Source of the DNA: Haemophilus parainfluenzae
GTDB lineage: Bacteria; Pseudomonadota; Gammaproteobacteria; Enterobacterales; Pasteurellaceae
Assembly: GCA_963537955.1 (NCBI GenBank)
Contig: CAUTFW010000005.1
Span: 12,118 to 76,117, forward strand
Reading direction: 5' to 3'
DNA: 64,000 bases
Of this stretch, positions 9,191 to 59,634 are shown piece after piece. Below the pieces are notes generated by a model. That model ran no database searches, had not been told where the DNA came from, and saw nothing but the letters and a program-made list of their open reading frames with translations. The position numbers and the translations under genes were made by a program. Each line of letters begins with the position of its first letter. Positions within the stretch are counted from its first letter, which is position 1.

Positions 9191-9306
9191 TTCTTTTCCT
9201 ATCTAAATAAAGCGATGAATTCTATCATTGAATGAGGGAAAGGGGTAGGCTTGGGGCTGATTTTATTTGAATTGTTTTATGGTCGTAATGCTGCTTAGTA
9301 ATAAAA

Positions 9307-9331
9307 CTTGGGGCAGTTATTCTGCCCCAAG
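9307..9331 (-). terminator. rho-independent terminator after the YidE/YbjL-type transporter gene
   Basis: Hairpin CTTGGGGCAG-ttatt-CTGCCCCAAG followed on the minus strand by TTTTAT. Confidence 0.8.
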
Positions 9332-9343
9332 TTTGAAAGGGTA

Positions 9344-10996
9344 TTAAACCCATAAAAGAATTGCTAACAATTGCGGTGAAATGATCCGTAAGAACATGGT
9401 GAGCGGATAGACTGTCGCATAGGAGAGTGCAGCGGCACCGCTTCCTTCTTTCAGTTCATTGGCGAAAGCAAGCGCAGGAGGATCAGTCATTGACCCCGCT
9501 AACAGGCCACAAAGAGAAAGATAATTTAATTTTACATATAAACGTGCAATGATACCTACAATCATTAATGGTACAAGAGTGATGAAAATACCGTAGCCCA
9601 TCCATTCAAGACCGGAACCATTGGTGAGTGTATCTACAAAGCTACCGCCAGATTTTAAACCGACTACAGCAAGGAAGAGCACAATACCAATTTCGCGCAA
9701 CGCCAAGTTCGCACTTGGCGGCATAAACCAATAGAGTTTTCCGATAGACCCAATTCGAGCCAAGATCAATGCGACGACTAACGGTCCGCCTGCTAGCCCT
9801 AATTTTAATGCCACAGGGAAACCTGGAATATAGAAAGGAATGGATCCGAGTAATACCCCTAAGCCAATCCCAATAAACACTGGTAACATTTGAACTTGAA
9901 GTAGTTTTTGTTTAGCGTTACCAATAACTGAAATGGCTTGGTTGAGAATGTCAGTTTTTCCAACCATGTGTAATACGTCACCAAATTGAAGGGTAGTATG
10001 GGCAGTTGGTACCAATTCCACACCTGCACGGTTTAAACGCGAAATGACAACACCATATTTTTGATGAATGCCGAGATGACGAATTTGTTTTCCGAGTACT
10101 TTTTCATTGGTGACGACCACGCGCTCAGAACGAATCTCTCCACTCAAGCTGGCTACCGGGATATCAACTTCTTCCCCAATGATAAGGTGCATTTTTTTCA
10201 AGCCTTCAGGATTGCCGACCAAATGTAAAATATCCCCAAGTTGAACATCGGTATCCGCTTTCGGCACAATAACAAGCTCACCCCGTTTCAAGCGAGAGCA
10301 GACAACATCTTCATCATCAAAACCTGGAATTTCAATCAAATGGATACCATTGAGATTAGTATTGGTGACTTTCAGAGACATGCTTTTGAGTGCGTCTTTG
10401 TCATGACCACTTTCTTTTTCAAAATTTGCTGCTTCCTCATCCACTTTAATTTTAAAGAAAAGACGAATAAGCCACATAGAAAGTAAAATGCCACAAATTC
10501 CAAAAGGATAAGCCATTGCATAGGCCATCCCCATGTTAGACGTCGTTTGCGACATGCCTAATTCAGAAAGAATTTGCTGACCCGCACCGAGAGAGGGGGT
10601 ATTGGTGACCGCACCGGAGTAAATACCAAGCGCGACATCAAGAGGAATATCCGCAAGCTTATAAATGAGTATTGTCACCACTGCACCAAGTGCAACGATT
10701 AAAATGCCTAATCCATTTAAGGTTAAGCCTGATTTTCGTAAGGAAGCAAAAAAGCCCGGCCCCACTTGAATACCAATCGTATAAACAAACAGAATTAAGC
10801 CGAACTCTTGCACGAAATGTAATGTATGGCTATCTAATTTAATGCCATATTGGGTGGTAAAATGGGCAACTAAAATCCCACCAAATAGCACGCCCCCAAT
10901 ACCCAGACCTACACCTTTAATTTTAAAATGCCCGATCCATAGGCCAATCACGGCAACGAGGGCAAGCAAACTAATGGTAATCGCAGTTTCACTCAT
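9344..10996 (-). CDS. putative transporter, AspT/YidE/YbjL family with two central TrkA-C (RCK_C) domains
   Basis: 550 aa with internally duplicated membrane halves flanking two soluble RCK_C-like segments. Confidence 0.85.
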
Positions 10997-11161
10997 ACCG
11001 ACCTCTAATTTATTAAAAATTTAACTATTTCGGATTATATCAATTAGATTTCTTACCCGCTTGTGACAAAGTCAAAAAATGTTATCTCCATCACATTTTT
11101 TCTTGCTTAAAAATAAACACCGCCTAAAATGACCGCACTTTTTTGATTTTATAGGTTGATT

Positions 11162-12952
11162 ATGGATTACGCTCAAGAGGCCATTAATTCGCTTTTATGG
11201 ATAGCAAAAACATTAGCGATGACGGCTGTCGTGTTTAGCTTTGGTATTTTCTTATTAGTCCGATTTACCCACTGGGGTAAACAATTTTGGCAATTTGCGG
11301 GCGGGTATCTTTCACCTCGCCGAAGTATTAAACCTTTGCTATTTTTCTTGTTAATTGTGGCGATGACATTAGTCAGTGTGCGTATTAGCTTGGTGCATTC
11401 TGAGTGGTATAACAATATGTACACATCCTTGCAGGAATTTAATGAACCTGTGTTTTGGGATCAAATGGTGCTGTTTTGTGTGATTGCGACAAGCTCAGTC
11501 ATCGCTGCATTGCTGAGTTATTATTTAGAGCAACGTTTTTCTATTGATTGGATCGAATGGTTGAATGGTCAGTTAGTAGATAAATGGATGAATAATCGCG
11601 CGTACTATAAAACGCAGTATGTTTCCGCTAACTTAGATAACCCCGATCAACGTATTCAACAAGATGTGCAATCCTATGTGCGAACTACGCTCTCTTTAAG
11701 TACAGGGGTGATAGATGCCGTCACCTCCATGATTTCTTACACGATCTTATTGTGGGGATTAGCAGGACCAATGATGGTATTTGGCACTGAAATTCCTCGT
11801 ATGATGGTGTTCTTGGTATTTGCTTATGTGATTATCACTACTGCGATTGCATTCCGTTTAGGGCGTCCGTTAATTATGCTGAATTTTGTCAACGAACGCT
11901 TAAACGCTAACTATCGTTATTCTTTAATTCGCATCAAAGAATATGCGGAAAGTGTGGCATTTTATGCGGGTGAGAAAGCTGAGAGCAGCCAACTTTATAA
12001 ACAATTCAGTTCGGTGATCAATAACATGTGGGATATTGTTTATCGAACCTTAAAATTCTCTGGTTTTAACCTAGTAGTAAGCCAAGTCTCCGTGGTGTTC
12101 CCTTTGTTAATTCAAGTGGGGCGTTATTTCGAGAAGCAAATTAAACTCGGCGATCTTATGCAAACGCTACAAGTATTTGGTAAGTTGCATTCAAATCTTT
12201 CGTTCTTCCGTAATTCTTACGATGGTTTTGCCGGATACAAAGCCACATTAGATCGTTTAACGGGCTTTAGTTATGCGATTGATATGGCAAATCGTCAATC
12301 TACTTCCCATTTACATGAACATGAAACTGACGTGATCTTTAAGAATTTAACCATCAGTAATCCATTTGGAAAAACCTTAATTGAGAATTTAAATTTAACA
12401 CTTCCACAAGGTTCAACCCTATTAATTCAAGGTCATTCAGGCGTGGGTAAAACCACGTTGTTGAGAACTGTGGCAGGGCTTTGGGCTTATTCTGAAGGGG
12501 ATGTGTATTGTCCCACTCATCAGCTTTTCTTATCGCAAAAGCCTTATTTACCGCAAGGTAGTTTGTTAACGGCACTGGCTTATCCGAATGAAGAAAAGGA
12601 ATTTAATCGTGATGAGATGATTGCGGTATTAAAACAAGTGTCTTTAGGGCATTTACAAGATCGTTTAGATCAAGAACAAGATTGGACACGTATTCTTTCG
12701 CTAGGTGAGCAACAGCGTTTGGCTTTTGCTCGTTTGCTATTACATAAGCCGAAAGTAGCCTTTCTGGACGAAGCTACGGCGAGTATGGATGAAGGTTTAG
12801 AAGATACGATGTATCGTCTGTTAAAAGAACGCTTACCCCATACAACGGTTATTAGCGTAGGGCATCGTTCAACCTTACAAGCTTTCCATCAGCAACAATT
12901 GATGATTTTAGGTAACGGTAAGTGGCAATTCACTGATCGAAATCAGGTATAA
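11162..12952 (+). CDS. ABC transporter, fused SbmA/BacA-like permease and ATPase (YddA-like)
   Basis: Walker A GHSGVGKTT, signature LSLGEQQRLAF, Walker B VAFLDEATAS. N-terminal TMD. ATG at 11162 is preferred over the TTG at 11156 used by the track. Confidence 0.85.
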   Translation: MDYAQEAINSLLWIAKTLAMTAVVFSFGIFLLVRFTHWGKQFWQFAGGYLSPRRSIKPLLFFLLIVAMTLVSVRISLVHSEWYNNMYTSLQEFNEPVFWDQMVLFCVIATSSVIAALLSYYLEQRFSIDWIEWLNGQLVDKWMNNRAYYKTQYVSANLDNPDQRIQQDVQSYVRTTLSLSTGVIDAVTSMISYTILLWGLAGPMMVFGTEIPRMMVFLVFAYVIITTAIAFRLGRPLIMLNFVNERLNANYRYSLIRIKEYAESVAFYAGEKAESSQLYKQFSSVINNMWDIVYRTLKFSGFNLVVSQVSVVFPLLIQVGRYFEKQIKLGDLMQTLQVFGKLHSNLSFFRNSYDGFAGYKATLDRLTGFSYAIDMANRQSTSHLHEHETDVIFKNLTISNPFGKTLIENLNLTLPQGSTLLIQGHSGVGKTTLLRTVAGLWAYSEGDVYCPTHQLFLSQKPYLPQGSLLTALAYPNEEKEFNRDEMIAVLKQVSLGHLQDRLDQEQDWTRILSLGEQQRLAFARLLLHKPKVAFLDEATASMDEGLEDTMYRLLKERLPHTTVISVGHRSTLQAFHQQQLMILGNGKWQFTDRNQV

Positions 12953-13090
12953 AATACCACTAAAATTGACCGCACTTACCTTGTTAGAAAAAATCGCGAG
13001 GTAAGTGTAGAGGATCAAGGCAAAAAATCCTGTTATCAAGCTCGATTTTTTGGTACATTTAGCACAATTTTTTTCTATGCTCAGAAATGA

Positions 13091-22275: not shown

Positions 22276-22839
22276 ATGAATAAGATAAAAAATGGCTGGT
22301 TAAGCCAGACAAGAAAAGTAATTTCACCACATTTTGATGAACGTCCTGATGTAGAGGATATTTCATTACTCGTCATTCATTACATCAGTTTGCCGCCAGA
22401 ACAATTTGGTGGGGGATATGTAGATGATTTTTTCCAAGGAAAACTCGATCCCACTATCCATCCTTATTTTGAAGAGATTTATCAATTTCGAGTGTCAGCC
22501 CATTGTTTAATTGAACGGGATGGCAAGGTGACGCAATATGTGAGTTTCGATGATAGAGCATGGCATGCGGGGCTTTCTTGCTTTGAAGGTCGGGATAAAT
22601 GCAATGATTTTGCGATTGGGATTGAGCTAGAGGGCAGTAATGAACAACCTTTTACAGAGGAACAATACCAAGTGCTTGCTGCATTAACACGAGATATCAT
22701 GCAGGCTTATCCGAAAATAACGCTCGATCGTATTGTCGGGCATTGCGATATTTCGCCTAGTCGTAAGATCGATCCGGGTCAATATTTTGAATGGGAACGC
22801 TATTTAGCGTTAGTCAAAAAAGGCTTGGATAAAAAATAA
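22276..22839 (+). CDS. ampD: 1,6-anhydro-N-acetylmuramyl-L-alanine amidase
   Basis: Amidase_2 motifs (AWHAG, HCDISPSRKIDPG); divergent from pilA as in H. influenzae. Confidence 0.92.
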   Translation: MNKIKNGWLSQTRKVISPHFDERPDVEDISLLVIHYISLPPEQFGGGYVDDFFQGKLDPTIHPYFEEIYQFRVSAHCLIERDGKVTQYVSFDDRAWHAGLSCFEGRDKCNDFAIGIELEGSNEQPFTEEQYQVLAALTRDIMQAYPKITLDRIVGHCDISPSRKIDPGQYFEWERYLALVKKGLDKK

Positions 22840-22878
22840 CCACTAAAAATTTTGATTGAATGTGAGTAAGATAATTTC

Positions 22879-22887
22879 TGTGAATAA
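22879..22887 (-). promoter_or_regulatory. DnaA box TTATTCACA
   Basis: Plus strand tgtgaataa; exact match to TTATNCACA. Confidence 0.7.
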
Positions 22888-22908
22888 GCCTTATCTTAAT
22901 GAAATTAA

Positions 22909-22924
22909 AGAGAAAATTTTCTCT
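22909..22924. repeat. perfect 16-bp palindrome AGAGAAAATTTTCTCT
   Basis: Read directly; followed by two tandem CTAAAAT-containing 12-mers (22925-22948). Confidence 0.9.
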
Positions 22925-22988
22925 CTAAAATTGAAGCTAAAATGTTGATAAGAGTTATGCAACACTCGCCATTTGCTCAATCACAATT

Positions 22989-22997
22989 TTATCCACA
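22989..22997 (+). promoter_or_regulatory. DnaA box TTATCCACA (perfect R-type)
   Basis: Exact 9-mer, preceded by an IHF-like AATCACAATTTTA. Confidence 0.75.
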
Positions 22998-23072
22998 GAA
23001 ATATTGAATAACTCACAGTTGTTATTTCTTCACCAAGCAAGGAATGTTTAAATTAAAAAATGGCTGAATTTT

Positions 23073-23110
23073 TGACCGCACTTTGACGAGAAAAAGTGCG
23101 GTCATTTTTT
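23073..23110 (+). terminator. rho-independent terminator formed by an inverted USS pair
   Basis: TGACCGCACTTT-gacgaga-AAAGTGCGGTCA followed by T7. Only the plus strand has the T-run. Confidence 0.8.
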
Positions 23111-23179
23111 TCGGAAAATTTTTGATTAAAGGTTATGCAAAAATGAAAAAAGTGACGTGTGAAAAGCGATTTTTGATCT

Positions 23180-23188
23180 TTATACACA
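23180..23188 (+). promoter_or_regulatory. DnaA box TTATACACA
   Basis: Exact match to TTATNCACA (same sequence as E. coli R2-type boxes). Confidence 0.7.
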
Positions 23189-23200
23189 GTTAAATTTAGA

Positions 23201-23232
23201 TTATCCAAGTGTTACCCACAGAGTTATCCACA
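23201..23232 (+). promoter_or_regulatory. head-to-tail array of three DnaA boxes (TTATCCAAG, TTACCCACA, TTATCCACA)
   Basis: Boxes start at 23201, 23212 and 23224 (11-12 bp phasing). The last is perfect; the first two have one mismatch each. Confidence 0.75.
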
Positions 23233-23323
23233 ATAGGGTAAATATGCCCATTCGGTTGATAAAAAAGCGAATTTATGAAACAATCTGCAAACTATTTTTG
23301 TACAAAATTTAAGGTGAACGATA

Positions 23324-23914
23324 GTGATCGATTTTGATGGCTACCGTCCAAATGTAGGCATTGTCATTTGTAATCGCAAAGGACAGGTGCTTTGGGCTAA
23401 ACGATACGGGCAGAATTCATGGCAATTCCCGCAAGGTGGAATTAACGATAATGAAAGTGCCGAACAAGCCATGTATCGTGAATTATATGAAGAGGTTGGC
23501 TTACAACCCAAAGATGTGAAGGTGCTTTACGCGTCTAAACATTGGTTGCGTTATAAGCTGCCGAAGAGATTGCTGCGTTATGACAGCAAACCCATGTGTA
23601 TTGGGCAAAAACAACGCTGGTTTTTGTTGCAATTAGTGGGCGATGAAAAAAATATTAATATGAACACAACAAAATCACCGGAATTTGATGGTTGGCGTTG
23701 GGTGAGTTTTTGGTATCCCGTACGTCAGGTTGTGTCCTTTAAGAAAGATGTTTACCGCAAAGCGATGAAAGAGTTTGCCCAAGCCATATTTGGTAACGAC
23801 AAAACATTGCTTGAAAATACGCAAGAGCATGAGATAAATAAACCGTATCACGCCCCACGTAAGAACAGCTTTTCTAAATATCAAAAACGTCCATCTTATA
23901 AATCAAGGGGGTAA
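23324..23914 (+). CDS. rppH: RNA pyrophosphohydrolase
   Basis: GTG start with an AAGGTG RBS. N-terminus [14 protein letters not shown] matches RppH. Nudix box [23 protein letters not shown]. Confidence 0.92.
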
Positions 23915-28274: not shown

Positions 28275-28390
28275 TCTAAAAGGTTTGAAAATTTGACCGC
28301 ACTTTTCCCTTTCATCCCTAGCGATTTCCGCGCTTTTCAGGTACAATCCGCCAGTTAAATTTAATGATTTTTGAGAAAACTAATCTATTT

Positions 28391-30187
28391 ATGAAGAATA
28401 TTCGCAACTTTTCTATTATTGCCCATATTGACCACGGTAAATCGACCCTTTCTGACCGATTAATTCAGACCTGTGGGGGGCTTTCGGATCGTGAAATGGA
28501 AGCGCAAGTGTTGGATTCCATGGATCTTGAGCGTGAGCGCGGTATTACCATTAAAGCGCAAAGTGTAACCTTAAATTATCAAGCGAAAGACGGTGAAACT
28601 TACCAATTAAACTTTATCGATACGCCAGGACACGTGGACTTCTCTTATGAAGTATCTCGTTCTCTTGCGGCTTGTGAAGGGGCATTGTTAGTTGTGGATG
28701 CAGGACAAGGCGTAGAAGCACAAACCTTGGCAAACTGCTACACCGCCATTGAAATGGATTTAGAAGTCGTGCCGATTTTAAATAAAATCGACTTGCCAGC
28801 AGCGGATCCTGAACGTGTTGCAGAAGAAATTGAAGACATCGTGGGTATTGATGCGATGGAAGCGGTACGTTGTTCGGCGAAAACCGGTGTAGGTATTGAA
28901 GATGTATTAGAAGAAATTGTTGCGAAAATTCCTGCACCAGAAGGTGATCCTGATGCACCGTTACAAGCGTTGATTATTGACTCTTGGTTCGATAACTATT
29001 TAGGCGTGGTGTCATTAGTTCGTATTAAGAATGGTGTGTTGCGTAAAGGTGACAAAATTAAAGTAATGTCCACCGGGCAAGCTTACAACGTCGATCGTCT
29101 AGGTATTTTCACGCCAAAACAAGTGGATACAACAGTATTAAATACCGGCGAAGTAGGTTGGGTTGTTTGTGCAATTAAAGATATTTTAGGTGCACCAGTA
29201 GGGGATACCTTAACGCACCAACACAATCCGGCAAGCCATGTATTGCCAGGTTTTAAGAAAGTAAAACCGCAGGTTTATGCTGGTTTATTCCCAGTGAGCT
29301 CTGACGATTATGAGGCTTTCCGTGATGCGTTAGGTAAATTAAGCCTAAACGATGCATCACTTTTCTATGAACCAGAAAACTCGACGGCTTTAGGTTTTGG
29401 TTTCCGTTGTGGCTTCTTGGGGCTTTTACACATGGAGATCATTCAAGAGCGTTTAGAACGTGAATACGATCTTGATTTGATTACCACAGCACCAACGGTA
29501 ATTTATGAAGTCGAAATGACCAATGGTGAAGTCGTTTATGTGGATAGTCCATCAAAATTGCCACCGTTAAATAATATTGCGGAAATTCGTGAGCCAATTG
29601 CAGAGTGTAATATGCTCGTGCCACAGGAATTCTTAGGTAATGTGATTACCCTTTGTGTGGAAAAGCGTGGCGTACAAACTAATATGGTATATCACGGTAA
29701 CCAAATTGCGTTAACTTATGAAATTCCAATGGGCGAAGTAGTCTTAGATTTCTTCGATCGCTTGAAATCAACATCGCGTGGTTATGCTTCTTTGGATTAT
29801 GGTTTCAAACGTTTCCAAGCAGCTGACATGGTACGTGTGGATATCATGATCAATGGTGATCGTGTTGATGCGTTAGCATTAATTGTTCATAAGGATAATG
29901 CCCCTTACCGAGGTCGTGAATTGGTTGAGAAAATGCGTGAACTCATTCCACGTCAACAATTTGATATTGCCATCCAAGCCGCGATTGGTAACCATATTAT
30001 TGCGCGTTCAACCGTAAAACAATTGCGTAAAAACGTATTAGCAAAATGTTATGGTGGTGACGTGAGCCGTAAGAAAAAACTCTTACAGAAACAGAAAGAA
30101 GGTAAAAAACGAATGAAATCTTTAGGTAACGTGGAAGTGCCGCAAGAAGCGTTTTTAGCGATCTTACATGTAGGTAAAGATAAATAG
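28391..30187 (+). CDS. lepA: elongation factor 4
   Basis: Start trimmed to [19 protein letters not shown]; 598 aa; GTPase G1-G4 motifs and the LepA C-terminal domain. Confidence 0.96.
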
Positions 30188-52863: not shown

Positions 52864-53058
52864 ATGAACAAAGTATTTAAGATTATTTGGAACAAAACGA
52901 CACAATCTTTCGTCGTGACATCAGAATTAGCGAAAGGAGCCGTAAAAGCTTCTTCAAACTCAGAACAACGTGTAACAAGCGAAACACGTTTGTCTTCTCT
53001 TTTTAAACTCTCTGCATTTGCACTTTCTTTATCTGCAGTGATGATGCCGGCACAAGCA
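52864..53058 (+). other. extended signal peptide region of the adhesin
   Basis: ESPR motif followed by a hydrophobic core and AQA-N cleavage context (predicted after residue 65). Confidence 0.7.
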
Positions 53059-56000
53059 AACGTGATTGTGGGGGATGGAAGCAATGCGCCTACAAATGTA
53101 CATCCTTTTAGTATTGCAGTTGGGAACAGTGCCACATCAGCAAGCGGTGGAAGTACTACCGCTATTGGTTATGGCGTAAATGGTCGTTATGACAATAGTG
53201 TGCTGATTGGTGATGGCACAGGAAATTATGGTGGAACAACGGGTAGTCGTAATATTCTCATCGGTCAAAATGCTCAAGTTGGCGATAGCACTTCTGTTGT
53301 ACGAGTAAACCAGTCTATTGCTATTGGAGCTGGCATTAGAGCTGATAAAGCGGAGATATATGGTGGTTCTATTACTGAAGGCGCATGGGCTCGAGGCGAT
53401 CAATCAATTGCGATTGGCGGTAATGTTATTTCTTATGGTAATGCATCGGTTGCGATTGGTGGGGATGATACTGATTCAGCAGCGGCTACACAAACGACTT
53501 ATATCAATACTAATGGCCAAGATAAAACGGGAACGGTTCAACAAGCATTTAGAGATTTAACTGGAGGGGAGCTTCAAAGTCCTCGTTGGATGAATACAAT
53601 TGCAGGGGAAGCTGCTGTATCATTAGGAACAAAAACAAAATCTGGGGATCTTTCATTAGCATTAGGTTCATTGGCTGCAGCGCAAAAAACGAATGCTGTC
53701 GCTGTTGGTACTGGGGCTAATGCATCGTTTGCAAACTCAGTAGCGATTGGTGGCGGTTCCGCAACGGATAAAGCAGGGGTTGCCTATACTACTCGTACTA
53801 TTTTAGGGACAACTTATACTTGGGCTGGTGGCGCGAATACTATCGCAGGGGACGTTGTTTCTATCGGTAAAAAAGGCTATGAACGTCAACTCATCAACTT
53901 ATCACCAGGTGATATTTCTGCAAACTCGACTGATGCAATCAATGGTTCTCAGCTTTATGCTGCGATGGCAGAAATTGAAAAAATCCGTTATTTCTCTGTG
54001 AAATCAGATGTAGCAGGTAACCGAGATAATACTGGTGCATCAGGTGTTGATTCTATTGCCATTGGACCTAATGCAAGTACTGCGTCTACTTCAGCTAGAT
54101 CTATTGTGGTAGGGAATGATGCATTTTCTAGTCATGCTGATAGTGTTTCATTAGGTAATGGTGCTCAAACTAAAAATAATAATTCCACGGCTATAGGTAC
54201 TCTTGCAAAAACAGAGGGTGCAAATTCTATTGCTGTTGGATTGAATGCGAGCACAACTTATGCAGATTCTATTGCAATGGGCTCAAATGCGACAGCAGCT
54301 GAAAATAAACTTGTTTCTATTGGACCTGATGCTAAATCAACTGCAAGATATGGTGTGTCATTAGGCAATAACGCATCATCAAATGGTACAGCTTCTATTG
54401 CCATTGGTAATTCAACGAATGCATCTCACGACAATGCAATCGCAATTGGTGATGCAGCAAACACAAATTCGTGGGCAACAATTGCTATTGGTAACAATGC
54501 GAGCGCAGCAGCAAGCAGAACCATTGCAGTTGGCCGTAATGCCTCTGCAGCTGGGCAGACAGCTATTGCGATGGGTATTGATAGTAATGCAAGTGAATAT
54601 TCAGCTATTGCTATTGGTGAATTAGCAACTTCTACTGGTGGTTATTCTGTTGCTATGGGGCATAAAGCCAATGTAGAAGGCAGTCTTTCTGTTGGTATTG
54701 GTGTTTCATCAAATGCAAACGCAACATCGACAACAGCTGTTGGCTCTTATGCTAATGCATCAGCAAATTATGCAACAGCCTTAGGCACTAGCTCAGCTGC
54801 TTCAGGAGTATATTCAATAGCTTCAGGTTATGCCTCAAAAGCACTTGGGTATAATTCGATGGCTTTAGGTTTCTCTGCTATTGCAAATAATACTCAAGCT
54901 ATCGCGATGGGGACGAGTGCAAATTCTTCCGCACATAGTTCTGTAGCGATTGGTGCTTCATCACTATCTAATGGCAATAATGCTGTTGCTATGGGCGTGC
55001 GAGCGAATGCTTCAGGTGTAGATTCAATGGCTTTGGGTTTATATGCAAATTCCTCCGCTGAAAGGGCAGTTGCTATTGGTCGGACATCGGTTTCTTCAGG
55101 AGATAGTGCGGTTGCTATTGGTTGGTCGTCACTAGCTAATGCTAGCCAGGCTGTGGCAATAGGGATAGATGCAAAAGGGATAGGTGTGGATTCAATGGCC
55201 TTTGGTTCACATGCAAATTCCTCTGGTGAAAAAGCGGTTGCCATTGGTAGAGCATCGGTTTCTTCAGGAGATAGTGCGGTTGCTATTGGCTGGAAATCAC
55301 TAGCTAACGCGAGCCAGGCTGTAGCTATAGGGATAGATGCAAAAGGGGCTGGTGTCGATTCAATGGCTTTTGGTTCACATGCAAATTCTTCAGGTGAAAA
55401 AGCGATCGCGATTGGTAGAACATCATTGGCTAATGCAACCCAAGCTATGGCAATGGGTGTGCAATCGAAAGCGTCTGGAGTTAATGCAATGGCTTTTGGC
55501 GCCAACTCAAACGCGTCGAATGAGACAACAATTGCTATCGGTGTTAATTCATTAGCAAGTGGTGTAAATACCGTGGCTTTAGGACAAGGGAGTAAAGCGA
55601 CTGATTATTCTGCGATGGCGTTTGGCCTAGGCGCAAATTCATCGGGTCGATATTCAATTGCAATTGGCCAAGGTACGAAGGCAGCGATAGAGCATTCTAT
55701 TGCAATGGGGTATTCTGCAAATGCAGCAGAGGCTTTCTCTATTTCTCAAGGGGCTTATTCTGAGGCCACTCAACGAGCAGCTATAGCATTAGGTTATACA
55801 GCTAAAGCAACAGACCGAGATGCGATGGCATTAGGTTCATTCGCTAATGCTAGTGCGAACAGTGCCGTTGCTCTGGGACCACATGCTAAAAGTACAGCAT
55901 ATAAATCTATTGCCCTTGGTGCTGATTCTGAAGCAGGAACAAATATGTTTGATGCTAACTCAACAAGTGCTGTATTTAAAAATGATGCAGGTTCAAATTC

Positions 56001-59000
56001 AGAAGTGAGATTTGCAGCAAGTTCATCTAGCATTGGCGGAGCAGTTTCTGTAGGTAAGGCGGGTAACGAACGCCAAATCCATAATGTCGCTGCGGGTCGT
56101 ATTTCTGCGACTTCAACAGATGCGGTAAATGGTTCACAACTTTACACCGTGTTAAATAACAGTGGATTTAATGTTCAAGAAAATGGCAACGCTAAATCAC
56201 GTATCAATAACAATGATGTAGTAAATTTCAAAGATGGAAACTTAACTACCGCGAATGTGACTGATACCGAAAATGGCACTATTGTGAAATTTGATGTGAA
56301 TACAACAAATATCACGACTAATACGACGACAGGTAATGCAACAGCTACAAATCCTAATAATATTGCTACGGCAGGTGATGTGACCAGTGCTATCAATAAT
56401 GTGCGTAATATGCCAATTACTTTCACGGGTAATACAGGAAGTGCGGTCAAAAAATTAGGTGAATCTTTAGGTATTGTGGGGGATGGTACCGATATTACAA
56501 GTACTGCTGATGCAAACAATGTGACATTTACGTTAAATAAATCAACTGTTGTTACAGCAGGGGACAATAAGGCTGTAACCAGTGGTGCAGTTGATACCGC
56601 CATTAAAGCCATCAACTTGACTACTGCAGGTAATGCAGGGACTGGCGCGGTTAATCTGGCAACACAATCTTTAAATATCACAGGTTCAAATGGTTTAATT
56701 ACCGTAGCCAAAGATAATGGCATTGAAGTGAAAATTGATGATGCTACTCGTAAAAAAATTGATGATGCAAGTTCTGCAAAAGAAGTATCAGCTTCGGTTT
56801 CTGGTTCATCTGCAGTTTCTGTCACACCAAATGGTACAACAAAAAATGCTGATGGTGTAGAAGTAACAGATTATGCTGTGGATCTTTCTCAAGCCACAAA
56901 AGATGATATTCAAAAAGGTATTGATGCGCATACTATCGTTACCAATAAAGGCCTAACCTTTACTGGCACAACAGGGACTACAACAGCGAAAAAATTAGGT
57001 GAAAGTGTTGAAATTTCAGGTGATGACAATATCACAACTGAAGCAACAGATGATAAAGTTCAAATTAAATTGAATAAAAATATCACCGTTGACAGTGTGA
57101 CTGCAGGTAATACCAAAATTGATAAAAATGGTCTGAAAGTAGGTGATATTACTGTTACAAATTCACCAATTACAGTGAATGGTAATGCAGTTAACAACAT
57201 CAATGATGCAATCAATCAAACTGCAAAACAAGCATTTAGTCCTCTTACTTTTGCAGGAGATACTGGCTTAAATGTTGAACGTAAATTAGGTACAACGGTT
57301 AATATTAAAGGCGGTCTGGCTGATGACGCTAATCTTTCTGACGATAATATTGGTGTAATTGCTGATGGTGAAGATACGTTAAATATTAAGCTAGCAAGAG
57401 ATATCAACATCCGTAGTGTTACAACTGGCGATACTATGATGAATAGTAACGGTATCAAAGTGGGTGATGATGTTGCTCTAGATAAAGACGGCTTAACAGC
57501 AGGTGATGTATCTGTAACTAAAGATGGTATTAATGCAGGTGATAAGAAGATCACTGATGTTGCAGCAGGTGATGTGAATGAAACATCAAAAGATGCGGTA
57601 AATGGTAGCCAACTTTATCAAACAATCAATAATCTCACCACAAAAGGTTTTGGGTTAACTGCTCAAGATGGTAATTCTGTGAAGAAACCATTAGGTGAAA
57701 CGATTGAGGTTGTTGGTGCAGATAAAAATATCAGCACTAAGGTTGAAGGTGGCAAAGTTAAGATTGCTTTATCGAAAGATATCAACGTTGATAGTGTCAC
57801 TGCGGGTGATACCAAAATTGATACAAATGGTTTGAAAGCAGGTGATGTTACTGTAACTAAAGATCCTATTACTGTAAATGGCACCACAGTTAATAATGTG
57901 AATGATGCCATCAATAAAACGGCTGAACAGGCATTTAAAGCACTCACTTTTGGTGGTGATAATGCACCGAAGAACTTTGAGCGTCGTTTAGGTGATAAAA
58001 TCTTTGTAAAAGGTGGTGCAACGGGGGCATTATCTGATAACAATATTGGTGTTGAATCTGATGGTAATGGCACATTAAACGTGAAATTAGCTAAAGATCT
58101 GAAAAACCTAGATAGTGCTGACATTGGTGGTGTAACTATCAATAACAAAGGCATTGATATGGGCGATAAGAAAATTACAGGCTTGAAAGCAGGTGAAGAT
58201 AATACTGATGCAGTAAATGTTTCACAGCTTAAGAAAGTAGAAGAAGTAGCTAATAAAGGCTGGAATTTAACAGCGAATGGCAAGGATTCTTCTAATGTAA
58301 AACCTGGTGATACCGTTAATCTGAAAAATACAGATAAGAACATCGATATTACTAAAGATGGCCACAATGTAACGTTCAACTTAGCTAAAGACATTAAAGT
58401 TGATAGTGTAACCGCTGGTGATACCGTGATGAATAATGACGGTGTGAAAGTTGGTGATAATGTAGCTTTAAATAAAGATGGATTAAAAGCTGGTGATGTC
58501 TCTGTAACAACAGATGGTATCAATGCTGGGAATAAGAAAGTAACCAATGTTCAAGATGGTGATGTAACGAGCACATCGAAAGATGCGGTGAATGGTAGTC
58601 AGTTATACGTAGTAAAAGAACTTGCAGGTAAAGGCTGGAATGCTACTGCAACGAAGAAAGCTGGAACAACTGGTGAAGTGACAGGTACTTCAGTTGCAAA
58701 TGTAGCACCTGGCGAGACTGTAAACTATATCGCAGGCGATAATATCAAACTTGAACAGAATGGTATTAACTTCACGATTTCTACGACAAAAGACTTGAAA
58801 GCTGAAAATGTGAATGCGAAAACGGTTAATACCACAACGATTAATCTTGGTGAGGGTGATAACTCAACCCCAATTACAGTAGTAAGTGGTAAAGATGCAG
58901 CACCGAATCTTGATGGTAAAACACCAAATCGTATGAACTTTGGTGGTGAAACTATCGCAACATTAAGTGATGGCTTAAAATTTGGCGCAAACGTAGGCGA

Positions 59001-59634
59001 TGTTTACGGTGCGAAATTAAATAGTCAAATCAATGTGAAAGGCGCTGATAGCAACACAAACTGGAGTGAGTTTGATGGTGGTGATAATGTGATGACAAAC
59101 ATTGATAAGAGCGGTAATGTTCGTGTAGGTATCAAGAAAAACCTTAAAGTGGAAAGTGTAACGGCAAACAAATTCACTGCGGGTGATACTGTGATTGATA
59201 ACAATGGTGTAACCATTAAAAATGGTCCAAGTATGACTAAAAATGGTATTGATGCAGGTAATAAACAAATTACCAATGTTGCCCCAGGACGCATTGCAGC
59301 AGACAGTACTGATGCGGTAAACGGCAGCCAATTACACGAAGTAAAAGCTGACATGAATAACAAGATCAATAAGTTAAATGGTCAAGTGAACAAGTTAGGT
59401 AAACGTGTCAATGCAGGTACAGCAAGCGCGTTAGCGGCGTCTCAATTACCACAAGCTTACATTCCAGGTAAGAGCATGGTATCTGTGGCAGCGGGTAATT
59501 ACCAAGGTCAAAATGCGGTGGCATTAGGTATGTCACGTATTTCAGATAACGGTAAAATTATTATTCGTTTAGCCGGTACTAGCGATACTCAAGGTAAAGT
59601 GGGTGTAGCAGTAGGTGCAGGTTACCACTGGTAA
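52864..59634 (+). CDS. trimeric autotransporter adhesin (YadA/Hia class), 2256 aa
   Basis: ESPR-type leader MNKVFKIIWNKTTQSFVVTSELAKG. About 1000 aa of YadA-like head repeats (SxAIG/NAxAxG). Six neck motifs (DAVNGSQLY). Stalk and Trp-ring-like (KGWN) modules. C-terminal YadA anchor ending GVAVGAGYHW. Confidence 0.93.
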   Translation: MNKVFKIIWNKTTQSFVVTSELAKGAVKASSNSEQRVTSETRLSSLFKLSAFALSLSAVMMPAQANVIVGDGSNAPTNVHPFSIAVGNSATSASGGSTTAIGYGVNGRYDNSVLIGDGTGNYGGTTGSRNILIGQNAQVGDSTSVVRVNQSIAIGAGIRADKAEIYGGSITEGAWARGDQSIAIGGNVISYGNASVAIGGDDTDSAAATQTTYINTNGQDKTGTVQQAFRDLTGGELQSPRWMNTIAGEAAVSLGTKTKSGDLSLALGSLAAAQKTNAVAVGTGANASFANSVAIGGGSATDKAGVAYTTRTILGTTYTWAGGANTIAGDVVSIGKKGYERQLINLSPGDISANSTDAINGSQLYAAMAEIEKIRYFSVKSDVAGNRDNTGASGVDSIAIGPNASTASTSARSIVVGNDAFSSHADSVSLGNGAQTKNNNSTAIGTLAKTEGANSIAVGLNASTTYADSIAMGSNATAAENKLVSIGPDAKSTARYGVSLGNNASSNGTASIAIGNSTNASHDNAIAIGDAANTNSWATIAIGNNASAAASRTIAVGRNASAAGQTAIAMGIDSNASEYSAIAIGELATSTGGYSVAMGHKANVEGSLSVGIGVSSNANATSTTAVGSYANASANYATALGTSSAASGVYSIASGYASKALGYNSMALGFSAIANNTQAIAMGTSANSSAHSSVAIGASSLSNGNNAVAMGVRANASGVDSMALGLYANSSAERAVAIGRTSVSSGDSAVAIGWSSLANASQAVAIGIDAKGIGVDSMAFGSHANSSGEKAVAIGRASVSSGDSAVAIGWKSLANASQAVAIGIDAKGAGVDSMAFGSHANSSGEKAIAIGRTSLANATQAMAMGVQSKASGVNAMAFGANSNASNETTIAIGVNSLASGVNTVALGQGSKATDYSAMAFGLGANSSGRYSIAIGQGTKAAIEHSIAMGYSANAAEAFSISQGAYSEATQRAAIALGYTAKATDRDAMALGSFANASANSAVALGPHAKSTAYKSIALGADSEAGTNMFDANSTSAVFKNDAGSNSEVRFAASSSSIGGAVSVGKAGNERQIHNVAAGRISATSTDAVNGSQLYTVLNNSGFNVQENGNAKSRINNNDVVNFKDGNLTTANVTDTENGTIVKFDVNTTNITTNTTTGNATATNPNNIATAGDVTSAINNVRNMPITFTGNTGSAVKKLGESLGIVGDGTDITSTADANNVTFTLNKSTVVTAGDNKAVTSGAVDTAIKAINLTTAGNAGTGAVNLATQSLNITGSNGLITVAKDNGIEVKIDDATRKKIDDASSAKEVSASVSGSSAVSVTPNGTTKNADGVEVTDYAVDLSQATKDDIQKGIDAHTIVTNKGLTFTGTTGTTTAKKLGESVEISGDDNITTEATDDKVQIKLNKNITVDSVTAGNTKIDKNGLKVGDITVTNSPITVNGNAVNNINDAINQTAKQAFSPLTFAGDTGLNVERKLGTTVNIKGGLADDANLSDDNIGVIADGEDTLNIKLARDINIRSVTTGDTMMNSNGIKVGDDVALDKDGLTAGDVSVTKDGINAGDKKITDVAAGDVNETSKDAVNGSQLYQTINNLTTKGFGLTAQDGNSVKKPLGETIEVVGADKNISTKVEGGKVKIALSKDINVDSVTAGDTKIDTNGLKAGDVTVTKDPITVNGTTVNNVNDAINKTAEQAFKALTFGGDNAPKNFERRLGDKIFVKGGATGALSDNNIGVESDGNGTLNVKLAKDLKNLDSADIGGVTINNKGIDMGDKKITGLKAGEDNTDAVNVSQLKKVEEVANKGWNLTANGKDSSNVKPGDTVNLKNTDKNIDITKDGHNVTFNLAKDIKVDSVTAGDTVMNNDGVKVGDNVALNKDGLKAGDVSVTTDGINAGNKKVTNVQDGDVTSTSKDAVNGSQLYVVKELAGKGWNATATKKAGTTGEVTGTSVANVAPGETVNYIAGDNIKLEQNGINFTISTTKDLKAENVNAKTVNTTTINLGEGDNSTPITVVSGKDAAPNLDGKTPNRMNFGGETIATLSDGLKFGANVGDVYGAKLNSQINVKGADSNTNWSEFDGGDNVMTNIDKSGNVRVGIKKNLKVESVTANKFTAGDTVIDNNGVTIKNGPSMTKNGIDAGNKQITNVAPGRIAADSTDAVNGSQLHEVKADMNNKINKLNGQVNKLGKRVNAGTASALAASQLPQAYIPGKSMVSVAAGNYQGQNAVALGMSRISDNGKIIIRLAGTSDTQGKVGVAVGAGYHW
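55066..55401 (+). repeat. two near-identical tandem copies of a 168-bp (56-aa) head-repeat unit
   Basis: AVAIGR(T/A)SVSSGDSAVAIGW(S/K)SLANASQAVAIGIDAKG(I/A)GVDSMAFGSHANSSGEK occurs twice, with partial copies on both sides (about 55015-55440). Confidence 0.9.
59371..59631 (+). other. YadA-type C-terminal coiled coil and 4-strand beta-barrel membrane anchor
   Basis: LAASQLPQAYIPGKSMVSVAAGNYQGQNAVALGMSRISDNGKIIIRLAGTSDTQGKVGVAVGAGYHW. Confidence 0.85.

Follow-up and report, generated by a model that had tools for sequence, protein, structure and literature searches.

DnaA-reactivating sequence 2 (DARS2), a non-coding site on the chromosome that acts in cis, converts spent ADP-DnaA into ATP-DnaA that is again competent for initiation, and in E. 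coli it is the main timer of initiator re-activation. It promotes the release of ADP from ADP-DnaA; without it the ATP-DnaA level falls and initiation comes late, and additional copies lead to over-initiation. Outside E. coli, DARS2 is to our knowledge known only from sequence comparisons in the Enterobacterales, Vibrio, Shewanella and Aeromonas. Here we consider a 64,000-nucleotide stretch of DNA (the window) from Haemophilus parainfluenzae or a very close relative, as judged by an RppH protein 93-97% identical to those of H. parainfluenzae loci, in which a cluster of DnaA boxes occupies the non-coding gap between ampD and rppH. We regard this element, at 22861-23232, as very probably the evolutionary counterpart of E. 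coli DARS2 on the strength of sequence comparison, and by analogy with E. coli it probably works as a DnaA-reactivating site.

The DARS core is by definition a set of three 9-bp DnaA boxes, with I and II opposed across 5 bp, III beside II, and highly conserved spacings (PMC8682772, PMC11724364, PMC6868365). E. coli DARS2 additionally employs IHF-binding sites (IBS1-2) at a defined distance from the core and an arm of Fis-binding sites (FBS2-3) with an overlapping DnaA box V. Both are essential for activity, and a 5-bp shift of IBS or FBS impairs function while a 10-bp shift is better tolerated (PMC4245941). The site also has a conserved chromosomal position, about midway along the replichore (PMC4585315). 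Published DARS2 comparisons cover E. coli, Shigella, Salmonella, Erwinia, Yersinia, Photorhabdus, Rahnella, Vibrio cholerae, Shewanella and Aeromonas (PMC4245941 Suppl. Fig. S10; PMC8682772 Fig. 8), and a review describes DARS as "identified in a number of Gammaproteobacteria" (PMC4451416). An initial annotation of the window, which proposed a DARS2-like or datA-like locus, knew of no DARS or datA element characterized in Pasteurellaceae; our literature search likewise found no link of DARS to Haemophilus, Pasteurella or Pasteurellaceae, although the original 2009 list of DARS candidates (Fujimitsu et al., Genes Dev 23:1221) may already name one.

The evidence for a DARS2 counterpart begins with the core itself. 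The stretch at 22977-23011 reads TCAATCACA-att-TTATCCACA-gaaat-ATTGAATAA, a III-3bp-II-5bp-I layout with box I opposed to box II, in the spacing and orientation published for DARS cores. Its three boxes are as follows:

22977-22985, forward strand: core box III, TCAATCACA, with two mismatches, head-to-tail with box II across a 3-bp gap
22989-22997, forward strand: core box II, TTATCCACA, an exact box and the anchor of the composite motif
23003-23011, reverse strand: core box I, ATTGAATAA (read as TTATTCAAT), with two mismatches, facing box II over a 5-bp spacer

This geometry is highly specific. We scanned for the composite at fixed offsets, allowing at most one mismatch in box II, two in box I and three in box III. 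The 64-kb window gave a single match, at 22989. Among 80 related rppH loci, collected by a scan with RppH as query at one genome per species, 60 have one site upstream of rppH, including loci from Pasteurellaceae, Vibrionaceae and some Enterobacterales as well as E. coli DARS2 itself. Just four further matches occurred in 1.3 Mb, all of them reverse-strand readings within those same rppH-upstream regions. The scan detects both E. coli DARS1 and DARS2, and E. coli datA and oriC gave no match. Conservation of the boxes upstream of orthologous rppH genes, and comparison with E. coli DARS2, DARS1 and datA, were among the checks that the initial annotation had named, and both point towards a DARS.

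Alignment of the cores tells a similar story. Read towards rppH, the E. coli DARS2 core is TTCTTCACA-act-CTATCCACA-gaaaa-GGTGAATAA; that of DARS1 is TAATACACA-tgg-TTATCCACA-ggaat-AGTGGATAA. The stretch TTCTTCACA...GGTGAATAA is the segment replaced in the "DARS2 DnaA box I-III" deletion, which we identified via its primer sequences (PMC4585315). Across 22 representatives that include three orders and E. coli DARS1 (alignment A1), the invariant positions are CACA in box III, TAT.C.CA in box II and G.ATAA in box I. That the Pasteurellaceae layout is merely E. coli DARS2 turned around was rejected, as both spacers (3 bp and 5 bp) and the order of strong and weak boxes keep the E. coli orientation. 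As a separate observation, the 18-mer ATTGAATAACTCACAGTT (23003-23020) spans box I and an overlapping box-like TAACTCACA, and has an identical inverted copy in E. coli 115 bp upstream of rppH, between the DARS2 core and the gene; Apirhabdus matches at 17/18 positions. E. coli and Apirhabdus were the only ones to share the 18-mer, Vibrio having none, and its final bases vary among H. parainfluenzae strains.

The position of the core is also that of DARS2. As the initial annotation had correctly indicated, E. coli rppH is divergent from mutH with DARS2 between them; the window has the DARS2 position on the rppH side, with ampD in place of mutH. Core orientation relative to rppH is the same in the window, E. 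coli and Vibrio, and the gene order rppH-(ptsP or a 264-aa open reading frame)-lgt-thyA is shared, the E. coli block being thyA-lgt-ptsP-rppH. The core lies 335 bp upstream of rppH in the window. The roughly 25 Pasteurellaceae species that have it show it at -327 to -448; in Vibrionaceae it is found at -191 to -200, and E. coli, Apirhabdus and Acerihabitans have it at -176 to -182. Two basal Pasteurellaceae lineages, Testudinibacter and Pasteurella testudinis, keep the divergent mutH, and their core is flanked by mutH and rppH just as it is in E. coli and Vibrio. By GC skew, the forward strand is the leading strand across 12-64 kb, which makes rppH co-directional with replication, like its E. 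coli counterpart.

Some loci have no core. A core at rppH was not found in Photorhabdus, Morganella, Providencia or Moellerella, Enterobacterales whose mutH does not adjoin rppH. Within the Pasteurellaceae, eight loci have neither the core nor the distal box array (described below) upstream of rppH: two species of Aggregatibacter, [H.] felis, two species of Gallibacterium, Volucribacter and two Actinobacillus metagenome-assembled genomes. In these, another gene abuts.

Finally, no other stretch of the gap is as well conserved as the core. Within-species variation was assessed among 20 H. parainfluenzae-type genomes, in which 36% of gap positions vary overall and individual features compare as follows:

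22977-23011: core, 1 of 35 positions variable
23180-23188: box, 1 of 9 positions variable
23256-23284, forward strand: rppH promoter, 1 of 29 positions variable
5' coding end of rppH: 6% of positions variable
3' coding end of ampD: 21% of positions variable

The box at 23224-23232 shows zero variation in the per-position plot. At 1 variable position in 35, against 6% and 21% for the neighbouring coding ends, the core is more constrained than the coding sequence that flanks it. The core is under purifying selection. Three-box geometry, orientation, synteny and constraint agree in supporting a DARS2 counterpart upstream of rppH, the central proposal of the initial annotation, as did every test made at the sequence level.

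The core sits within a wider cluster of DnaA boxes, and here the initial annotation requires some amendment. The ampD-rppH non-coding gap (22840-23323, 484 bp, 30% GC) does hold four exact TTATNCACA boxes at the places it gave: 22879-22887 on the reverse strand, and 22989-22997, 23180-23188 and 23224-23232 on the forward strand. Its claim that the cluster exceeds chance is likewise borne out. Shuffling the gap 20,000 times with dinucleotides preserved gave on average 0.034 exact boxes and never as many as three, versus the four observed; allowing up to one mismatch, the gap has eight boxes, and the highest number in any shuffle was seven. The whole window has 10 exact boxes versus 4.2 expected, and outside the gap every 500-bp stretch has at most one. 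This clustering is far beyond chance. Its mismatch counts were right at one each for TTATGCAAA and TTACCCACA; TTATCCAAG has two mismatches rather than one, and tgtgagtaa (TTACTCACA) one rather than two. Of the core it had listed box II and missed the reversed box I, and the IHF-like sequence that it placed at 22979-22991 in fact overlaps box III and the start of box II.

Apart from the core and the distal array, the gap contains the following boxes:

22861-22887, reverse strand: two boxes 18 bp apart, TTACTCACA at 22861-22869 (one mismatch) and TTATTCACA at 22879-22887 (exact), directed away from the core
22955-22963, forward strand: weak box TTATGCAAC, two mismatches, 34 bp upstream of box II and kept family-wide as gTTATnCA
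23133-23141, forward strand: weak box TTATGCAAA, one mismatch, overlapped by an IHF-like site (23116-23130) and a Fis-consensus match (23124-23138)
23180-23188, forward strand: exact box TTATACACA, 191 bp from box II

These differ in how well they are kept. Both reverse boxes are exact in most H. parainfluenzae strains and take weaker forms in H. haemolyticus, and no fixed counterpart of the pair was found elsewhere among the Pasteurellaceae rppH loci compared. The converging arrays to which the initial annotation appealed were off target as evidence, the left-hand boxes being confined to Haemophilus. The box at -34 has one mismatch in Mannheimia, Bibersteinia, Nicoletella, LFhippo2 and R. caecimuris, and its aligned column is AGTTATNCA. 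The box at 23133-23141 is not conserved, lying in a stretch (23111-23179) variable at 45% of positions among strains; the second proposed IHF-like site, at 23121-23133, falls to the same variability. The exact box at 23180-23188 is the window's counterpart of an extra box about 35-45 bp upstream of the array tandem in seven species (two of Rodentibacter, Avibacterium, Otariodibacter, Mannheimia, Bibersteinia and Nicoletella), where it stands at +189 to +193. Elsewhere in the window, 29401-29900 has five one-mismatch DnaA boxes in 500 bp versus about 0.6 expected from the window average; lying within a 607-aa open reading frame (28364-30187), these are probably due to chance or codon-driven.

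The second conserved part of the element is a head-to-tail array downstream of the core:

23201-23232, forward strand: array of three boxes, TTATCCAAG (23201-23209, two mismatches), tg, TTACCCACA (23212-23220, one mismatch), gag, TTATCCACA (23224-23232, exact)

With a family consensus of TTAT.CACA-nnn-TTATCCACA and a weaker box before it, the array is the only other conserved island across Pasteurellaceae. It is a module of its own, specific to Pasteurellaceae and separate from the core, and its phasing, which the initial annotation had offered in support, was off target as evidence for a DARS. What ties it to the core is distance. Across 25 species, 240.8 ± 9.7 bp separate the second tandem box from core box II (range 224-268), with 16 species at 234-238 bp, and the spacer itself is unalignable. 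The distance from the array to the rppH -10 element is looser, at 79.5 ± 25.2 bp (range 40-128), and the array therefore tracks the core and not the promoter. A nucleoprotein complex that forms a loop would hold core and array at a fixed distance of this kind. Helical phasing of that distance is not claimed: the Rayleigh statistic peaks near 11 bp (R=0.65), driven by the modal cluster at 234-238 bp, and the signal is lost once that cluster is removed (p about 0.14, not significant).

Head-to-tail boxes set 2-3 bp apart, of which E. coli box V is an example, favor the cooperative assembly of DnaA oligomers (PMC8682772). In five loci of the Actinobacillus clade, ATCAACAAAT is found 17 nt upstream of the first tandem box, and on the other strand in E. 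coli GATCAACCAAT is found at the same 17-nt offset from DARS2 box V, within the FBS2-3 region. The comparison suggests that the array may be a mirror-image, relocated version of the E. coli Fis / box V arm, placed on the box-I side, although it amounts to a lead and not to a match. The core-array spacers of the 25 Pasteurellaceae species contain 61 GATC sites in about 5.15 kb (11.8 per kb), roughly 3.7-fold above the window's 3.2 per kb, with up to 6 in 189 bp in Otariodibacter and one in the window's spacer. Such enrichment might reflect Dam/SeqA control of the element in some lineages.

A candidate IHF site is a further component to compare with E. coli DARS2, and it is clearer in the family than in the window. 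Of 25 Pasteurellaceae species, 18 have a same-strand match to YAAnnnnTTGATW with at most one mismatch, placed 86 or 97 bp upstream of box II, versus 7.3 ± 2.2 species (maximum 14) in shuffles. This position agrees with that of the E. coli IBS region, at -99, where Apirhabdus has an exact site. Within the core-array spacers of the 25 species, by contrast, IHF-like sites show no enrichment (22 versus 15.9 ± 4.0 in shuffles). Two sequences are relevant in the window:

22895-22920, forward strand: block orthologous in alignment A1 to the family IHF-type site (TAAnnnnTTGATT...ATAAgGA), present as the degenerate copy cttaatgaaattaaagag
22938-22950, reverse strand: TATCAACATTTTA, the only exact IHF consensus match in the gap

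The block at 22895-22920 is conserved among H. parainfluenzae strains though it has drifted from the IHF consensus. The exact match is probably fortuitous, as the 64 kb contains eight exact IHF matches versus 7.9 expected. Fis-consensus matches near the element, at 22827-22841 and 23124-23138, were dropped as evidence because the pattern is too degenerate (38 in the window versus 49 expected by chance). DARS1 is active without IHF or Fis (PMC11724364), so the window core could be active too, even with no clear site for either protein.

Two further features complete the gap:

23073-23110, forward strand: inverted Haemophilus-type uptake signal sequences (USSs) TGACCGCACTTT / AAAGTGCGGTCA followed by a T-run, forming a 12-bp stem with six GC pairs
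23256-23284, forward strand: predicted rppH promoter, -35 TTGATA, 17-bp spacer and extended -10 TG-a-AACAAT, the sole promoter match in the scan

The USS hairpin, between the core and the array, is the only terminator match in the scan and is likely the ampD terminator, marking the transcript end. Those Haemophilus and Rodentibacter species that have ampD as the flanking gene share the paired-USS hairpin. The 11-mer TATGAAACAAT (23274-23284), which covers the extended -10, is found exactly or nearly so 44-61 bp before the start codon in most rppH loci, reading TGTGAAAAAAT in Vibrio. E. coli and Pasteurellaceae alike keep the -10 element, T(A/G)TGAAACAAT, and so do species without DnaA boxes, an unusually deep conservation for a promoter element. 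The -10 motif is recognizable with at most two mismatches in six of the eight loci without core and array, which shows the promoter to be independent of the array; in the two Actinobacillus metagenome-assembled genomes it is unrecognizable.

The flanking genes are assigned with confidence by NCBIfam models:

22276-22839, forward strand: ampD (NF008758 AmpD equivalog, E=3.8e-88), transcribed towards the element
23324-23914, forward strand: rppH, RNA pyrophosphohydrolase (NF001934, E=2.1e-98), with a GTG start at 23324

rppH heads a gene run of rppH, the 264-aa open reading frame, lgt, thyA and tadA, the last three confirmed by NCBIfam models, and pil genes lie divergent from ampD on its upstream side. 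ampD is the upstream neighbor of the element also in Haemophilus, Rodentibacter, Necropsobacter and Avibacterium. An Rfam scan of 22500-23600 at E<=1 found no known RNA family, returning a single chance snoRNA match of 23 bits against a gathering score of 50.

Several observations count against a functional DARS2 at this locus. Boxes I and III are weak in H. parainfluenzae, with two mismatches each, and box I is without the C at position 8. The best IHF match in the -86/-97 range of the window has three mismatches, and the exact IHF consensus at 22938-22950 is private to the window strain, absent from 20/20 other H. parainfluenzae-type loci. No convincing FBS2-3 / box V counterpart was found upstream of the window core, where just 138 bp separate the ampD stop from box III. 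One strain (L048) is without 50 bp between the core and the array, in the part of the gap that holds the hairpin, and the core-array spacing is thus not absolutely required. The joint absence of core and array in eight loci could likewise stem from single rearrangements, since the two are adjacent, rather than from functional coupling.

These points must be set beside what other readings would explain. DnaA bound to the array at 23201-23232, and perhaps to other boxes, might activate or repress rppH-lgt-thyA or ampD as an operator, with no nucleotide exchange, so that the state of the initiator would govern RNA turnover or the supply of thymidylate. Only 24 bp lie between the end of the array and the -35 of the sole predicted promoter, thyA lies downstream in the same gene run, and DnaA is established as a transcription factor at other promoters (PMC11317965). 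We nevertheless consider an operator without DARS activity unlikely: the array-promoter distance ranges over 40-128 bp across species while the array-core distance is held at 241 ± 10 bp, and the -10 motif is exact in array-less E. coli and persists in six of the eight Pasteurellaceae loci that have neither array nor core. Moreover, a DARS-spaced core 290 bp upstream of the promoter, with the highest conservation in the gap, would be left unexplained. Transcriptional control could, for that matter, coexist with DARS activity as an added role of the array. A datA-like site, the alternative offered by the initial annotation, would lower initiation potential by titrating DnaA or by promoting DnaA-ATP hydrolysis with IHF. 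The many high-affinity boxes, the IHF-type site conserved in the family and the 2-3 bp head-to-tail spacing, which favors ATP-DnaA oligomers (PMC8682772), would all suit such a site, and yet we judge it improbable. Opposed boxes I and II across 5 bp are the DARS signature (PMC6868365); E. coli datA, a cluster of boxes 2, 3 and 7 with a single IBS between glyVXY and queG, has neither a III-II-I composite nor a 12-bp tandem of strong boxes; and the locus is syntenic with DARS2 and not with datA.

That the element might be the chromosomal replication origin, oriC, is the least credible of these proposals and can very nearly be set aside, as the initial annotation had done. Dense DnaA boxes in an AT-rich gap invite the thought, as do the GATC-enriched core-array spacers of other Pasteurellaceae. 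Origins of the gammaproteobacterial type have an unwinding element of AT-rich 13-mers, GATC sites in clusters, R1 and R4 boxes facing opposite ways and a switch in GC skew. The window's own gap, however, has one GATC in 484 bp versus 11 in 232 bp of E. coli oriC, no AT-rich 13-mer repeat family was found in it, and the skew keeps its positive sign through the element, at 0.046-0.134 between 18 and 28 kb. In E. coli the orthologous sequence is DARS2, which lies some 0.95 Mb away from oriC, and the element is absent at rppH in eight Pasteurellaceae loci; the oriC of H. influenzae Rd, mapped near 603 kb, is far from the rppH-lgt-thyA block of that genome. The window's cumulative skew minimum falls elsewhere, near 10-12 kb, where local skew changes sign at about 9300-13000 around a divergent pair comprising a YidE/YbjL-type transporter (reverse strand) and an ABC transporter (forward strand) with a 160-bp intergenic gap. 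An origin at this minimum was rejected, there being no DnaA-box or GATC cluster; gene orientation most likely accounts for the skew switch. A 2,256-aa open reading frame on the forward strand (52864-59634) lies where GC skew is highest.

If the element does act as a DARS2, its mechanism would follow that of E. coli (PMC6868365, PMC4245941, PMC8682772). ADP-DnaA would bind the three core boxes, the protomers on boxes I and II would meet head-to-head via their AAA+ domains so that ADP is released, and apo-DnaA would leave the DNA and then rebind ATP. The remaining steps are less secure. The IHF-type site about 86-97 bp upstream of the core, degenerate in H. parainfluenzae, would bend the DNA. 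The array at 23201-23232 may serve as an accessory arm about 236 bp from the core, binding DnaA cooperatively and modulating the core in a role likened to that of the E. coli box V / FBS2-3 arm, from the core's box-I side. The USS hairpin would stop ampD transcription ahead of the array and the rppH promoter.

Taken further, one could picture the Pasteurellaceae DARS2 as a rebuilt, two-part element that has kept the ancestral core and IHF site and has replaced the Fis / box V arm with a mirror-image arm on the box-I side, a head-to-tail array of two or three strong DnaA boxes about 236 bp (some 22-23 helical turns) away, loop contact between the two setting the rate of DnaA recharging. This proposal is tentative, and we hold it to be possible rather than probable. 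In such an element, Dam/SeqA hemimethylation after fork passage might contribute in GATC-rich species, and the array could report initiator status to the rppH-lgt-thyA promoter.

A DARS2 core in Pasteurellaceae would widen the reach of this system to small-genome, host-restricted pathogens and commensals, among them Haemophilus, Pasteurella, Actinobacillus, Mannheimia and Glaesserella. The existence of two architectures amounts to a natural experiment, and their comparison could reveal which DARS2 parts are mechanistically necessary. In practical terms, the three-box composite, present at 60/80 loci with no true off-target in 1.3 Mb, proved specific and could serve as a search key for DARS annotation.

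How, then, does the element compare with the systems already described? It resembles E. coli DARS2 (core around NC_000913.3 2,969,135-2,969,169) in its III-3bp-II-5bp-I core, with 12/12 identity over TATCCACAGAAA and 7/7 over TGAATAA; in its orientation to rppH and the same conserved rppH promoter downstream; and, in most Pasteurellaceae, in an IHF-type site that matches in side, in orientation and in its distance of about 86-99 bp to box II. The differences are equally plain. The core-rppH distance is about 180-200 bp in E. coli and Vibrio and 335 bp in the window (327-448 bp in the family), and the upstream neighbor is mutH in E. coli and ampD in the window. E. coli has FBS2-3 / box V about 200 bp from the core on the box-III side, whereas the window has a head-to-tail array of strong boxes about 236 bp downstream on the box-I side. 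The window's element, moreover, has weaker boxes I and III, a degenerate IHF site and a USS hairpin within it. E. coli DARS1, in the bioD-uvrB intergenic region, shares the three-box geometry and aligns with the window core in A1, but has a uvrB and not an rppH context and is a 101-bp element without a distal box array.

The Vibrionaceae loci represent the E. coli layout: mutH is divergent, the core stands 191 to 200 bp ahead of rppH, and some 205 bp beyond the core, on its upstream side, there is a reverse box. Their core sequence is nearly that of the window. E. coli datA and oriC share with the element their DnaA-box clusters with an IHF site and head-to-tail boxes for cooperative binding; they differ in having no III-II-I composite and other neighbors. 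None of the DARS2 homologues in the published comparisons has the layout seen in Pasteurellaceae, in which a distal tandem is present and the core is further from rppH. In essence, the element extends a known kind, a very probable DARS2 orthologue by sequence, position and constraint, of which its lineage-specific accessory architecture may be a variant.

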